Of a stretch of DNA of 55,476 nt, positions 35,011 through 55,476 are shown one piece after another. The notes under the pieces are model-generated. The model was not told the DNA's origin. It saw only the letters and a program-made list of their open reading frames with translations, and ran no database searches. Each line of letters starts with the position of its first letter. Position 1 is the first letter of the stretch. The translations under genes and the position numbers were made by a program. The DNA is taken from assembly GCA_050298595.1 (NCBI GenBank), contig JBNKUM010000017.1, forward strand, positions 1-55,476, given 5' to 3'. The stretch comes from Gammaproteobacteria bacterium. Lineage in GTDB: Bacteria > Pseudomonadota > Gammaproteobacteria > GCA-001735895.

Positions 35011-35123
35011 TACTTAATCTCCCGTTGTCACAAAATTGAGATTCCGAGACCGATCAATCATCCAGAATACGGTGTTTAATTCGCTCCTCACTCCGTGATT
35101 GACCGTCGTCGAAATCTATAACT

Positions 35124-35174
35124 GGGTCAGATCACAATTTACTCTATTACTAGAATATTCTGTGATCTGGCCCC
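35124..35174. repeat. GGGTCAGATCAC...GTGATCTGRCCC palindromic REP(IN) unit
   Basis: Close copies at 47431-47482 and 47665-47716. Confidence 0.85.
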
Positions 35175-35234
35175 TAATTTCGTATGACCCTGATTTTCGC
35201 CCCACCCCCCCCCCGATTTTCCGAGTAAAGTGGG

Positions 35235-36389: not shown

Positions 36390-36486
36390 AGGTATAAGAA
36401 GAATAAACGCAACATCCCGGCATATAAAGCCGGCAACAGACCTTCAGAATCCCACCCGAAACGACAGTAAATCGGGCCAGCATTCA
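36390..36486 (-). mobile_element. IS91/ISCR-like oriIS end, copy 1
   Basis: Minus strand ends GCGTTTATTCTTCTTATACC, similar to ISCR oriIS; 93/97 identical to 37722-37818. Confidence 0.7.
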
Positions 36487-36898: not shown

Positions 36899-37159
36899 GG
36901 TCGGAGCTAAGAGTTCGGTTCCCCGGGCAGCTTGCTTGCCGCTTCTTCATTATTCAGTTTTTCCGCCTTCGTTATTCTGGTGTTGTCGAAGGGAAAAGAG
37001 CTGAGAATCTTACCGAAACAGTGATTACCATCGGAGTATTCATGCTCATTGTCGGGATGGGGTGCTCGTCAAATAGAAACCGAATGATTCAGATCAATTT
37101 ACTCAATTCTAATGAGTGATAGCTTGAGACACTTTGAATATTTACAGGAAAGTATAATT

Positions 37160-37660
37160 ATGCAAAAACGATACAGGAACCTTATTTCGGATCTTCTTTT
37201 ATTGGCCCTGATTTCTCTATTCCTGGTATCCTGCGGTGGCAGCAGTAGCTCATCCAGTGATAGTGGCTGTGGTACGGTAACCGATATAGGCACTAGTAGC
37301 CTTCTTAATGGTGAACTTGACGCCAGCGATTGCAGAATGTCAGATCTTGATCCAACTTCAGCCGACACTTCTTTTGTCGATGAATACCTTCTTACCCTGA
37401 GTTCTCCGGCAACAATGACGATCACTATGAGGTCAAATGATCTAGACTCGTATCTGGGAGTGCTTGGTCGATCCACGTCTTGTGCCTCGGGATGTACCGC
37501 AGCGGAAGCTAATCTCCTAGCTTCAGATGATGATAGCGGTGGTGGTGCAAGCGGTTTAGATGCTCAGATCACGATATCTCTGAATGCGGGTAGTTATATA
37601 ATTATCGCTAATTCATATGATCCCGAGCCGGGTAGCTATACGCTGGAAACCTCTTTTTAG
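37160..37660 (+). CDS. Lipoprotein with PPC-like beta-sandwich domain
   Basis: Lipobox LVSC, Ser linker, DSYL...DDDSGGG...LNAGSYIIIA...GSYTL. Confidence 0.75.
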   Translation: MQKRYRNLISDLLLLALISLFLVSCGGSSSSSSDSGCGTVTDIGTSSLLNGELDASDCRMSDLDPTSADTSFVDEYLLTLSSPATMTITMRSNDLDSYLGVLGRSTSCASGCTAAEANLLASDDDSGGGASGLDAQITISLNAGSYIIIANSYDPEPGSYTLETSF

Positions 37661-37721
37661 ATAGAGTACTTTCGGTATAGGACCCTGAGTCCTAAATCAT
37701 TGGGCATGATTTTAGAACACC

Positions 37722-37818
37722 AGGTATAAGAATAATAAACGCAACATCCCGGCATATAAAGCCGGCAACAGACCTTCAGAATCCCGCCCGAAGCGACAGT
37801 AAATCGGGCCTGCATTCA
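37722..37818 (-). mobile_element. IS91/ISCR-like oriIS end, copy 2
   Basis: Direct repeat of 36390-36486 with 4 mismatches. Confidence 0.7.
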
Positions 37819-38164
37819 ATCCTGAACCGGGTCGGAGCTAACTAGTGCCCATCCATAAACAGTTACTTTTCAGGAATTTCGCCGACTCCGTGATTTTGCC
37901 GCCGATGTTGCAGTGTAGCATTCACTCTTCGTAAACGCTTTGCCATTAAAAGTGGCGGAGGGTATTCTAAAGAAAGTGCTGGGGCTATTAGTGAAGCCTT
38001 GTTAAGAGTTTTTTGAAATTGATTTTGCTGCGTTAGTGAAGTTATTAGGGCCTGTTACTTTGCTGGTGTGTCAAATGTAAGGCCTGATAAACATAAGGCA
38101 GTCTCGCCCCACACGAGGGCGGGGGCTACAATGAAAGTTCCTACACTCACCATTGGAGACTGCC

Positions 38165-39175
38165 ATGACACTGTATTGCGGAATCGATTTACATTCAAAT
38201 AATCATTTCATCTGCGTGATTGATGATAAAGATAAACGGCTCCTGGAAGTTAAGCTGGATAATTTTTCAGAGCTCACTATTCAGGCTTTATCTCGCTACA
38301 AAAAACGTCTTAAAGGAGTAGCTATTGAGTCCACTTTTAATTGGTATTGGCTGGTTGATGCTTTGATGGAAGCAGGGTTTCACGTTGAGTTGGTCAATAC
38401 AGCCAAGGTAATTCAGTATAGCGGCCTAAAACGTAGCAATGACCGATCAGATGCTTTTCACCTCGCGCACCTGATGCGCCTGAATATTCTCCCTACCGGA
38501 TTTATCTATCCAAAACCTACTCGTGGTTTACGCGATTTAGTACGAAAGAGAATACAGCTGGTACAAGATAGAAGCAGCCATATCATCCGGTTTAAATCCC
38601 AATTTCAGATGCATACTGGGCAAACTATAGGGGCGGACAAAATTAAGACCAAAAAATTCTCCCTGCCGCTAGTTGGTGATGCCAATGTCCAACTTGCCCT
38701 TCAGAGTCACCTGATGCTAATCAGGGCAATAACCCAACAGATCAAAGCGCTGGAGAAAGCCATTATGGCTCAGGTGGAACCCAAACCTGGGTTTGAGGAC
38801 CTGAAGACTGCACCGGGTATCGGGGATATCCTGGCGGAAACTATATTGTTGGAGACCGGACCTATCTCACGTTTCAAAGGCCTCGGTAACTACGCCTCCT
38901 ATTCGCGTTGTGTCGATAGCCGACGTGAAAGTAACGGTAAAAAGAAAGGTGAAAACAACCGCAAGAATGGCAACAAATACCTGGCCTGGGCCTTTATTGA
39001 AGCGGCCAACTTCGCCATCCGTCGTAGTGAAAAAGCCAATCAGTTTTATCTTAAGAAATCAAAAGCAACGAAACCCATCGTTGCTAGAAAAGCGCTGGCA
39101 CACAAGTTATGCCGAGCCTGCTACTGGATCCTGAAAAATGGAGAAGCGTACAACGAAGAGAAAATCTTTGGCTAA
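38165..39175 (+). CDS. IS110-family transposase/recombinase
   Basis: DEDD residues GIDLH, AIEST, NDRSDA; PGIG; RESNG serine loop; ATG 38165 after GGAG. Confidence 0.95.
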   Translation: MTLYCGIDLHSNNHFICVIDDKDKRLLEVKLDNFSELTIQALSRYKKRLKGVAIESTFNWYWLVDALMEAGFHVELVNTAKVIQYSGLKRSNDRSDAFHLAHLMRLNILPTGFIYPKPTRGLRDLVRKRIQLVQDRSSHIIRFKSQFQMHTGQTIGADKIKTKKFSLPLVGDANVQLALQSHLMLIRAITQQIKALEKAIMAQVEPKPGFEDLKTAPGIGDILAETILLETGPISRFKGLGNYASYSRCVDSRRESNGKKKGENNRKNGNKYLAWAFIEAANFAIRRSEKANQFYLKKSKATKPIVARKALAHKLCRACYWILKNGEAYNEEKIFG

Positions 39176-39179
39176 AGTT

Positions 39180-39420
39180 TGAAAGGGCTGGTTAACCATG
39201 TACCGGGTTGGTTAATAACCATCAGGTCTGATTGGACCAGTCCTTTCAATATAAATCGATTATTTAAGTTTGTGCCCATGTGTAGAGCCACAACAGGTTG
39301 GTCGTTACAGGCCACAGATCTGTCATTCATTTGGACTGCACATGGTACCGAGGTTTTTCTGGGGCAATAGCCAGGGCTGTAAAATTACAGCTTGATCCTG
39401 ATGGGTGACTGGTGCGCATT
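39180..39420 (+). ncRNA. Predicted bridge/seek RNA of the IS110-family element
   Basis: 13-bp stem 39180-39192/39236-39248 enclosing target-matching arms; donor-matching ATGGGTGA at 39401-39408; 3' limit approximate. Confidence 0.65.
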
Positions 39421-39546
39421 TACTGCGTCACCATTACTATGAAAAGACGGGTGCGCTGATTTAAATGTATCGATGATTATAACAGCCCGGTATATCGGGA
39501 GGATTTTTTTGTGCCTTCGCTTGACAATTTGCCTAATGGGTGACCC

Positions 39547-39690
39547 GAATGGCACTTACTTAAGCGAAAAAGGTCATCGCGAGCGACAGCGCGGCGATCT
39601 CAAACCTTGTCGGAGCCCCACTACCGAAGAGATTGCCACGTCGCAAGCTCCTCGCAAAGACAGTTTGGTCGCCTTAAGTAAGTGCCATTA
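39547..39690. mobile_element. IS4-type MITE copy 2
   Basis: TIRs GAATGGCACTTACTTAAG / CTTAAGTAAGTGCCATTA; TSD AGGCCTGACCC with left copy split by the IS110. Confidence 0.85.
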
Positions 39691-40304
39691 AGGCCTGACC
39701 CTTGCTTCCTCTTTCGGGAGAAAGAGCTGGGTACTCCAAACTGGGTCAGAACTAAGTAACTCTTTGATTCTAAGAATTTATTGATTATTTAATCCTATGG
39801 CTTTCACCTTAAAGGGTGAATTTATCAAGAAAGATAAAAGCTCTAAGGAAGAAGACGAAACTCCAAACAGATCGTTTTTTGTCCAGGAGTGTTTGTGGGA
39901 TTGATTAAAGCGGTAATCGACGAACAACATATATTTCGAGAATTGCCAAAGCATTATCGAGGTGACTTTGATAGTCAAATGGATGGTTTAAGTCTGCCTT
40001 AATTCGGTGTTCAGACCTACCAGGCTAAAAATCCCAAAGGGCAAAAGACGTTCCCTCAGGGCCTTCCTTTAAATCAACACAGTTCATTACGAACAAAACT
40101 GATTCACTTGTTACAACAAGCATAATAAATACGAAGCGATTGTTGAGCTTTATAGTCAGTCTACCTGCTCGGTTCACTTTCTATTCAGGTTCTTATGATT
40201 TAATCAGGATATCCGTTTCGTAGGCATTCTACTCGCCACAGGGAACGTGTACAGGGGCTTCCGTAGATTGCGGAAATAAGTGGGATTGAAGCGAGAGATA
40301 TTAC

Positions 40305-41114
40305 ATGTTTCGTATAACATCGTTCTTTTTTAAATGGGTTGTACCTGTGGTATGCCTGGTGTTTTTAACAACGTTGAATGCAGGCCAGCTCGATGATTTT
40401 GAAAAAGCTGCCACGGAGGATGATTTGGAAGAGATAGATGTCAGGAAATGCAGGCATAGGCATTGCCATGACGAGCATTACAATGATGAGAATCACCTGG
40501 ATGATTCCTCATCAGGAAGGTTTATTACCGATATCATCGGCATCATCATCACTGAATCTTCGAAAGCAACCCTGGCGCGCGTGCAAGGTACGGCAGACCC
40601 AGTGTATGAAGATATTCCATTGCGCATGCCAGGCTCACCTGACCTGCCCATGTTGAGGTTGGATTTAAACCGACAACATATCGATCAGAACCTATCAGCT
40701 TCAGATTTCAGCATTGAAGGGGGATTTGGCCCACTCGCTTTGCAATACCGCGAGACGAATTTTGTTGAGGACTCTGCTACCAATTTACGCATGACGTATT
40801 TTCATGGACTCTTTCGAATGTCTGGAAGCCCGCAATTCGAGATGGATTTAGGTCTGGGTGAAGTGACCTTAACGGGTAAAGAGCAGCACAGCGGTATGTC
40901 ATTCACCATACCTACCAGCTTTTATACAGCATCCAACCTGCAGATTCGTTTCACGCCAACATGGAGTAAAATAGGGTCGAATGAAATCAGAGATTACGAT
41001 GCTTCAGTTGCTGTTGTACGAAAATATTTTTCCGTAAGGTTGGGGTATCGCAAACTTCAGGCCTTGCATGAAACGCTTCAAGGTCCGTATGTTGGTGTCT
41101 CGTTACACTATTGA
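40305..41114 (+). CDS. Exported protein, probable outer-membrane beta-barrel C-terminus
   Basis: Signal peptide, His-rich patch, amphipathic strands, terminal aromatic (VGVSLHY). Confidence 0.65.
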   Translation: MFRITSFFFKWVVPVVCLVFLTTLNAGQLDDFEKAATEDDLEEIDVRKCRHRHCHDEHYNDENHLDDSSSGRFITDIIGIIITESSKATLARVQGTADPVYEDIPLRMPGSPDLPMLRLDLNRQHIDQNLSASDFSIEGGFGPLALQYRETNFVEDSATNLRMTYFHGLFRMSGSPQFEMDLGLGEVTLTGKEQHSGMSFTIPTSFYTASNLQIRFTPTWSKIGSNEIRDYDASVAVVRKYFSVRLGYRKLQALHETLQGPYVGVSLHY

Positions 41115-47106: not shown

Positions 47107-47430
47107 TATATCCCTCTTAAGTGATCAGGACCTCTATAGTAGAGCAACCTGTGGAGCTTTACTTTACACAAAGGATCAAAAAGCTGCTAATCTGGCCTAA
47201 TCTGATTCTTTTTGTAGTCTTTGGTGGGGGAACCTTGAAGGAAATAACGGGGTGATACTGACGCGTAAATAATCCACCCCGACAGGAGGGATGCTCTCTG
47301 AAAAAAAGGGCTTCCTTTTGTACAAGCTCACCTCGTACCTGGGTGTTATATGAATAATTGCCAGTATAGCCCGGTCATCATACTGACCATTGACTGCAAA
47401 AACGGGGTCCAGAAACCGGTAACAGAAACC

Positions 47431-47716
47431 GGGGTCAGATCACAATTTACTCTAATATTAGAATATACTGTGATCTGCCCCCGATTTTCTGCAATTTACT
47501 CTAATATTAGAATATACTGTGATCTGACCCCGATTTTGTTCTTGACCCCGATTTTGTTCCGCGATGTAACTGTCCTGGCTTGATTCCATATCGTTCTTCT
47601 ATTGTCTTGCGAAACCTGTCATCGCCAACTGGCTGACAGTATTCACTGGCTCTCTCCGGAAACCGGGGTCAGATCACAATTTACTCTAATATTAGAATAT
47701 ACTGTGATCTGACCCC
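47431..47716. repeat. Cluster of GGGGTCAGATCAC REP(IN) units enclosing a RAYT C-terminal fragment
   Basis: Full units 47431-47482 and 47665-47716 plus partial copies; minus strand of about 47560-47653 reads RASEYCQPVGDDRFRKTIEERYGIKPGQLHR. Confidence 0.8.
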
Positions 47717-47792
47717 GATTTTCACAAATATGACCCTCAGTATATTAATCATGTCTCAACTTTAAAAAGTGAGTTTAGATGTGGTACTCGAA

Positions 47793-55157: not shown

Positions 55158-55343
55158 GAAATTTCTCGTTATCGTAGTTGATCAAACTTCTTCCCGGATG
55201 ATGCCGGGGCCAACCAAAAGCCATGGCCGAAGGCGGGATTTTACAGAGGTAGGAGGGTTTAGGCTAGAAAACATCGAAATCAAATGGGCGACCCCGTTGT
55301 CACCATGGGTCCTCGAACGGACAAAACGGACAAAACCGGGTCG

Positions 55344-55476
55344 CCCATTAGGCAAATTGTCAAGCGAAGGCACAAAAAAATCCTCCCGATATACCGGGCT
55401 GTTATAATCATCGATACATTTAAATCAGCGCACCCGTCTTTTCATAGTAATGGTGACGCAGTAAATGCGCACCAGT
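55344..55476 (-). mobile_element. Right end of a second, inverted copy of the IS110-family element (runs off window)
   Basis: Reverse complement of 39408-39540 with no mismatch seen. Confidence 0.93.

Follow-up and report, generated by a model that had tools for sequence, protein, structure and literature searches.

The DNA analysed here, which we call the window, is a contig of 55,476 nucleotides from a gammaproteobacterial genome. Positions 38087-39542 are occupied by an insertion sequence of about 1.46 kb that we assign to the IS1111 type. It consists of a 77-nt left end, a gene for a 336-aa DEDD transposase and a 365-nt right end without a credible reading frame (Table 1). This pattern, with a short upstream end and a long non-coding end downstream of the gene, is the layout described for the IS1111 group (PMC11187229, PMC11208160). 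The left junction reads AAGGCC-TG-ATAAACATAAGGCAG and the right junction TTGCCTAATGGG-TG-ACCCGAATGG, and the sequence common to both is limited to TG(A). By eye, TAAGGCA near the left end and TGCCTAA near the right end form a candidate subterminal inverted repeat (six of seven positions), which is at the short end of the 7-17 bp range of the group. The tip motif TGA-TAAnCAT at the left end is conserved across homologues, with the reservation that the pattern used to find left junctions demanded TGA, so that part of the conservation there stems from the search itself. If the element were closed into a circle, the TTGACA of the right end would come to lie 17 nt from the TAAACA of the left tip, with the TG just before TAAACA. 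This is the arrangement of published junction promoters, though the match to a -10 box is poor here (3/6). Inside the linear element, a promoter search found no promoter-like site on the plus strand, and an Rfam search of positions 37000-41000, with E values up to 1, gave no relevant match.

Table 1. Features of the insertion sequence and of its second copy in the window (the roles of the RNA modules are predicted).
Feature	Positions	Strand	Evidence or remarks
Left target half AGGCC and core TG (38085-38086), host DNA	38080-38086	+	Sequence reading
Short left end, ATAAACATAAGGCAG...	38087-38164	+	Subterminal repeat arm TAAGGCA (38094-38100), 5' UTR hairpin, GGAG ribosome-binding site
Transposase/recombinase gene, 336 aa	38165-39175	+	Pfam, NCBIfam, alignment to IS621 and ISCro4
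Target-binding stem-loop, 71 nt	39179-39249	+	Fold, covariation, arm-flank permutations
Linker between the two RNA modules, with conserved UUGGAC at 39331-39336	39250-39350	+	Alignment conservation
Donor-binding module	39351-39408	+	Hairpin covariation, 12-mer match to right tip
Terminal ~130 nt of right end	39409-39540	+	Hairpin around 39410-39433; right tip ...AATGGG
Terminator-like hairpin, then T run	39486-39499, T run to 39510	+	Terminator-site search
TTGACA	39521-39526	+	Sequence reading
Subterminal repeat arm TGCCTAA	39530-39536	+	Sequence reading
Core TG (39541-39542) and right target half ACCCGAA, host DNA	39541-39549	+	In left 11-bp duplication of adjoining repeat
Right end of second copy, ended by contig end; junction ...AATGGG-CG-ACCCGGTTTT	55337-55476	-	Sequence comparison

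The transposase contains the Pfam domains PF01548 (residues 5-147, E 6e-18) and PF02371 (residues 213-295, E 5.8e-13), and scores 182.8 bits with the NCBIfam model NF033542, 'IS110 family RNA-guided transposase', for which the cut-off is 140. By sequence, its only relatives with a solved structure are IS621 (8wt6) and ISCro4 (9t56), and the phmmer match to IS621 is remote (E 1.8e-8). In this alignment E55, D93, D96 and S256 correspond to E60, D102, D105 and S241, which are among the catalytic residues listed for IS621 (PMC11208158). The remaining catalytic Asp, D8 in the motif GIDLH, lies outside the HMMER alignment and was assigned by inspection; with D8 placed in this way, the D-E-D-D plus serine set is present. 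S256 is followed by N257 (codons at 38930-38935) at the position of a glycine that is conserved and structurally important in IS621 (PMC11208158). The surrounding motif ESNGKKKGEN is common to the clade and was used as a pattern in our homologue search. At least 8000 related proteins were found at E <= 1e-30, and the nearest homologues among the matches listed from genome collections share 75% and 71% protein identity.

A first-pass annotation of this region, made from the letters of the DNA, had proposed that the right end encodes a candidate bridge/seek RNA whose guide arms match the insertion sites, and every feature that it named was found where it had been placed. The first 75 nt 3' of the transposase stop codon fold into a stem around an internal loop and a small hairpin, and this stem-loop begins 4 nt after the stop codon. 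The stem comprises 15 bp (39179-39193/39235-39249) and includes the 13 bp noticed originally, and the inner hairpin lies at 39209-39221 (UGGUU-AAU-AACCA), as predicted. This stem-loop has a minimum free energy of -31.2 kcal/mol (z = -4.44), which none of 200 shuffles equalled, and carries a conserved UUGG at 39232-39235. Its internal loop presents two arms, one at 39202-39210 (5') and the other at 39222-39231 (3').

The matches claimed for these arms were reproduced as well. The 5' arm ACCGGGUUG (39202-39210) can form eight Watson-Crick pairs and one U.G pair with the core and right flank of a second, partial copy of the element at the end of the window (copy 2; top strand CGACCCGGT, 55335-55343, minus strand). 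Likewise, the 3' arm AGGUCUGA (39224-39231) shows seven identities and one U.G with the left flank and core of the complete copy (copy 1; AGGCCTGA, 38080-38087), where the target half AGGCC and the core TG account for 7+1 of the eight positions. For the right flank of a further copy on contig C21 (CGACCCGGC), the 5' arm reaches 7+1, and for that of copy 1 itself (TGACCCGAA) only five Watson-Crick pairs and two wobbles of nine. By this pairing, each arm would read a different strand, one to the left and the other to the right of the insertion point. When the non-coding region was shuffled 5000 times with dinucleotide composition preserved, a match like that of the 5' arm appeared in 452 shuffles and one like that of the 3' arm in 456, or about 9% each, so that either arm by itself is weak evidence. 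The two matches together, correctly ordered and separated by 5-40 nt, were obtained in 4 of the 5000 shuffles; one of the three right-flank strings was mis-extracted for this count, with the effect of adding one irrelevant 9-mer. The joint placement of both arms in one covarying stem-loop is not weak evidence.

The second module relates in a similar way to the ends of the element. An octamer equal to the right end plus core, ATGGGTGA at 39401-39408, had been reported; it is present and forms part of a longer, 12-mer match, in which the 3' donor arm CCUGAUGGGUGA (39397-39408) copies the right tip and core at 11 of 12 positions with a wobble as the mismatch. Expressed as DNA, CCTGATGGGTGA (39397-39408) and the right tip with core, CCTAATGGGTGA (39532-39543), have one difference, which would be a G.T wobble, and the degenerate pattern CCTRATGGGTGA occurs at only two places in the 55-kb window, namely the internal copy and the right tip, compared with 0.01 expected. 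Complementarity between the 5' donor arm AGGUUUUUC (39351-39359) and the left tip GATAAACAT is partial; this match is weak (6/8 in the window), and within it GTTTTTC (39353-39359) agrees with the reverse complement of the left-tip GATAAAC at six of seven positions, the figure given at first. Two hairpins lie in this module, at 39363-39372 and 39374-39393. Folded as a single sequence, the second module alone did no better than shuffles (z = -0.03), so that support for its structure comes from the covariation described below.

Two contig ends carry, on the minus strand, sequence 99% identical to the final 140 nt of the element (C17:55337-55476, which is the end of the window, and C21:52832-52971). 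The junction of the C21 copy reads AATGGG-CG-ACCCGGCAAG. These two copies give the best guide matches, and their left flanks are absent from the assembly. Copy 1 is the one complete copy of the element in the assembly, and a second left end of this variant is found on none of the genome's contigs.

The same genome also harbours a sibling element with 68% nucleotide identity, which is split over contigs C22 and C44 (55-nt overlap) and has a further left end at C17:2-135 (minus strand, at the start of the window) and a further right end at C76. A whole-genome search with the covariance model of the first stem-loop recovered exactly two elements, the studied one and this sibling. The window contig starts in a left end of the sibling and stops in the right end of another copy of the studied element; as both of its ends lie inside these elements, they caused the contig breaks. 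Both left ends of the sibling, C17:2-135 (minus strand) and C22, have the same tip as the studied element. The two elements share 90% identity over the final ~60 nt of their right ends, and pairing in the outer stem of the sibling is kept by compensatory changes on both strands. The target arms, by comparison, differ. In the studied element, ACCGGGUUG and AGGUCUGA are the 5' and 3' arms, the right flanks are GACCCGG (twice) and GACCCGA, and the left flank is AGGCC-TG. The sibling has AAAGGGUUG as 5' arm and GAGUCUGA as 3' arm, together with the right flanks GACCCTT and GACCCTA (in full, TGACCCTTA and TGACCCTAA) and the left flank GAGTC-TG (twice). This same-genome control therefore consists of first-loop arms that differ between siblings and flanks that differ in step.

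Folding and covariation across homologues had been named as a check on the proposal. We scanned for homologues in one genome per species and matched at least 600 stretches, at least 549 of which encoded relatives, and kept the best 80. Eight exact duplicates of the downstream 100 nt were dropped, as were two loci with a truncated gene, two whose sequence after the stop codon is unlike the rest (L050 and L096) and one with just 25 nt there (L084). The first stem-loop was thus analysed in 69 sequences, comprising 67 homologues, the window and the sibling. When these were aligned with MAFFT, 11 of the 12 predicted first-loop pairs had changes on both sides. A covariance model built from the MAFFT consensus found the motif in 67 of 74 sources. 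In the alignment fitted to this model (67 sequences), 91.4% of cells were paired versus 65.9% in column shuffles, pairing was 28-46% when partners were slid by 1-3 columns, and double-change cells numbered 214 versus 66 in shuffles (67 homologues). Because the structure guided the model alignment, the MAFFT alignment offers the less biased test.

For the second module, sequences were anchored on [TC]GATGGG at +200 to +360, which was present in 35 of 68 loci; after removal of two mis-anchored loci and addition of the sibling, 34 sequences remained. The two donor-module hairpins were paired in 94.9% of cells against 71.1% in shuffles, with 90 double-change cells against 29. A mini-hairpin that RNAalifold placed in the donor arm (AUCC/GGGU) is invariant and hence uninformative, and was omitted from the pairing count. 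Both the first-loop stems and the donor hairpins therefore covary. In addition, two G.U pairs hardly vary, and since they would read as C.A if the opposite strand encoded the RNA, the RNA strand is that of the gene (+).

We then compared the arms of each homologue with its own insertion site. Junctions were set by the conserved element tips, without use of the arms; a search in which the best arm match could lie anywhere in the flanks and wobble counted as pairing had proved too permissive, with many spurious best matches, and was replaced by these tip-based junctions. Of the 68 loci, 52 yielded a left junction and 45 a right junction followed by sufficient flank. Over seven positions in the 52 loci, the 3' arm scored 4.40 against its own left flank versus 2.64 (sd 0.17) when permuted, and over ten positions in the 45 loci the 5' arm scored 6.91 against its own right flank versus 5.42 (sd 0.15); neither value was reached in 5000 permutations, which treat related elements as independent. 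Allowing wobble gave the same picture. Elements with unlike targets, for example those with the flanks GGCGTGCTT, GTGCTTGTT and GTCTCAAA, have arms that differ correspondingly.

The ends of the elements behave similarly. The 5' donor arm scored 6.58 against its own left tip over nine positions in 31 loci, versus 5.89 (sd 0.11) when permuted (0/5000 reaching the observed value), an excess that is small in size and consistent across the family. The match is complete (9/9) in one element, and most others have the same single U-T mismatch as the window. In 52 of the 53 loci with a recognisable right tip, this tip was repeated inside the element at 9-12 of 12 positions. Departures from the usual tip are matched in the internal copy (GGC in both, in L039 and L043), and the base after TG, which may be A, T, G or C, is the same in both places in most elements. 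A single element may have one such third base at its left junction and another at its right, and so the core common to both is TG, without the A.

These comparisons bear on two other explanations. That the matches are a chance resemblance of short strings would accord with the ease with which each arm alone is found in shuffles, but it leaves the rarity of both arms in order, the 0.01 occurrences expected of the 12-mer and the absence of any family permutation as good as the data to coincidence, and we give it next to no weight. Alternatively, the matches could operate at the DNA level only, as protein-binding sites or remnants of end duplication, with the site chosen by the protein. The internal CCTGATGGGTGA does repeat the right tip in direct orientation at the DNA level, and modular end-like boxes are known for ISPpu9 (PMC12288879). 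However, compensatory changes keep RNA helices, the G.U pairs are strand-specific, and the arms match host DNA outside the element and change with it; moreover, co-purification with this RNA has been published for members of the family (PMC11187229). We consider an explanation confined to DNA very improbable.

We conclude that the locus is very probably an IS1111-type insertion sequence whose right non-coding end encodes a two-module bridge/seek RNA, on the same strand as the transposase gene. This agrees with the RNA-guided recombinase suggested at first: stems covary, arms track their own flanks and ends, the sibling differs in step, and the order of the arms is the published one. By analogy with the published mechanism of the family, the RNA would be made and bound by the recombinase, and a circular intermediate and the corresponding chemistry are predicted. 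The 5' arm of the first module, ACCGGGUU, would pair with the target's top strand on the right side of the crossover (GACCCGGT) and the 3' arm, AGGUCUG, with the bottom strand on the left side (AGGYCYG), so that both target arms together would specify AGGYC-YG-ACCCGGT. The second module would do the same for the joined ends of the element, with its 3' arm CCUGAUGGGUG directed to the bottom strand of the right tip and its 5' arm GUUUUUC forming an imperfect duplex with the left tip's top strand. The RNA-bound DEDD/serine recombinase would then bring together the target and the circular element, whose junction would read ...AATGGG-TG-ATAAACAT, and strand exchange would take place at the TG that both contain, which would leave no duplication beyond that dinucleotide.

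The target of the element had been described as a REP motif of this genome. This holds in so far as the target is a short recurrent extragenic motif, but it is not a large REP family, and the site of copy 1 is an 11-bp duplication belonging to a 144-bp repeat. Copy 1 lies inside the left member of the 11-bp direct repeat AGGCCTGACCC, and intact 11-mers are found at 39691-39701 and at C85. The adjoining repeat is MITE-like, occupies 39547-39690 of the window, has the inverted ends GAATGGCACTTACTTAAG...CTTAAGTAAGTGCCATT, and is flanked by the 11-mers at 38080-38087/39541-39546 and 39691-39701. At least 11 full-length copies exist, with 11-bp flanking repeats that are perfect in 9 of 11, match at 10 of 11 positions in one and are degenerate in one. 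The sequence of these flanking repeats varies by copy, with a loose YCTGAnnC motif in common, and they have the appearance of normal target duplications made by a small non-autonomous element, for which we identified no parent transposase. As the right-hand duplicate at copy 1 is intact, the repeat element came first and the insertion sequence second. The reverse order, with the repeat inserted after the insertion sequence, was ruled out, since the right-hand duplicate is AGGCCTGACCC and not the tip of the insertion sequence. We also dropped the idea that the 144-bp repeat was moved by this recombinase, because its flanking repeats differ between copies, like ordinary target duplications.

Genome-wide, the best guide-fitting site, AGGTCYGACCCGGT, occurs once exactly (C16) and at 7 sites within one mismatch. 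Two of these seven are unoccupied and have CG for TG (C74 and C80), in agreement with the CG at the two other right junctions. GACCCGGTTT was rejected as a large repeat family, with 20 occurrences in the genome versus roughly 8 expected by a hand estimate. The REP meant in the first-pass annotation was probably a 65-nt palindromic repeat family, GGGGTCAGATCACA...TGTGATCTGACCCC with CTGACCCC. The window holds four copies of it, at 35117-35181, 47425-47489, 47474-47538 and 47659-47723, and none of the four contains this insertion sequence. Just upstream of the insertion sequence, a 182-codon frame (37112-37660) lies between two 97-nt direct repeats, 36390-36486 and 37722-37818, which are 96% identical and spaced 1332 nt apart.

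A public sequencing run (X1) bears on the mobility of the element. One of its contigs joins 38077 to 39689, skipping the insertion sequence and the 144-bp repeat together, in a joint that is only moderately reliable (depth 2.1, 32 nt on the shorter side, 90% likeness). Depth in this run is 8-20 over the body of the insertion sequence versus 2 on its flanks, and a right junction with the flank GACCCTTT, a full match to the guide of the sibling, is also present. Along with the intact frame and three near-identical right junctions (99-100% over 140 nt), the joining contig gives indirect support to recent activity of the element. It could still be a genuine family member of which copy 1, or the whole element here, is a relic whose inherited RNA module no longer directs transposition, given that the site of copy 1 fits its own guide only partly and that the assembly has one full copy. 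Against this, the 336-codon frame has kept its catalytic residues, both RNA modules fit the family model (52.1 bits), and the uniform right junctions and the contig that joins the flanks without the element point the same way; we judge a relic to be distinctly improbable.

An isolated piece of the element was also seen. At C94:199405-199541 (minus strand; locus L009), a solo right-end module consists of only the last ~137 nt at 85% identity and lacks both gene and guide module. It begins with 10 additional bases and lies between AAAGACC-TG and ACCCCAG, which are like the two halves of a target; it may have been left behind by excision or may have moved on its own. In the homologue L095 (2661-2789), the sequence after the internal right-tip copy is GTCCCCC, which is like the right half of its own target, in place of the usual CTGGYGCG, and the site resembles a junction formed there.

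A modular organisation, in which the donor-guide DNA (CCTGATGGG-TG-A, 39397-39408) doubles as an internal pseudo right end and the CG junctions reflect tolerance of core mismatches, strikes us as unlikely. Under such an arrangement the recombinase could excise the gene and guide RNA without the last ~135 nt, leaving solo terminal modules behind, and could also mobilise the terminal module alone; the solo copy on C94 would be one such footprint. If this were true, the CG-for-TG junctions would represent insertion that tolerates a wobble-paired core mismatch, with a wider natural target range as the consequence.

Among characterised systems, the bridge/seek RNA element proposed here is close in organisation to the IS1111 elements with seekRNAs, namely ISEc11, ISPa11, ISKpn4 and ISPst6 (PMC11187229). 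It shares with them a DEDD transposase of about 330-350 aa and a non-coding region downstream of the gene, with an RNA that is predicted here to start just after the stop codon. Two short opposite-strand matches that overlap at the crossover are likewise common to both, as is the arm order, in which the top-strand match lies 5' of the bottom-strand match; ISPa11 also inserts into a repeated extragenic element (PMC11187229). Unlike these four, the present element, known from its sequence, belongs to a different lineage (homologues were sought in genome collections), with the predicted target AGGYC-YG-ACCCGGT and a short candidate subterminal repeat (6/7). A bridge RNA has been predicted in the right end of 93% of catalogued IS1111 elements (PMC11208160).

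Features common to this element and the bridge RNA of IS621 are the two loops, one for the target and one for the donor, that each read both strands on either side of a common dinucleotide core, as well as the composite DEDD and serine catalysis and the circular intermediate, both of which are predicted here (PMC11208160, PMC11208158). IS621 differs, as described there, in belonging to the IS110 group, in having its RNA upstream of the gene and the arms in reversed order, and in its core, which is CT instead of TG. ISPpu9 of Pseudomonas putida has repeated extragenic targets, internal end-like boxes and solo modules in the genome (PMC12288879), whose counterparts here are the internal right-tip copy and the C94 solo terminal module. 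ISPpu9 differs in being an IS110-group element, and the downstream small RNA is reported as not required for its transposition (PMC12288879); the modular behaviour is that of ISPpu9.

The element is a sound but ordinary new example of the bridge/seek RNA system described in 2024. It leaves knowledge of the mechanism unchanged, and as a candidate tool it is one of thousands of such elements. As seen here, raw sequence alone can be enough for a reader to identify a bridge/seek RNA and to place its guide arms correctly. The element adds a well-documented natural example from a widespread IS1111-type clade, with a TG core, a clear consensus anatomy and an arm-to-flank correspondence that extends over some 50 independent elements. 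Within one genome, the two siblings have the same ends and donor loop and different target loops, which amounts to natural reprogramming.
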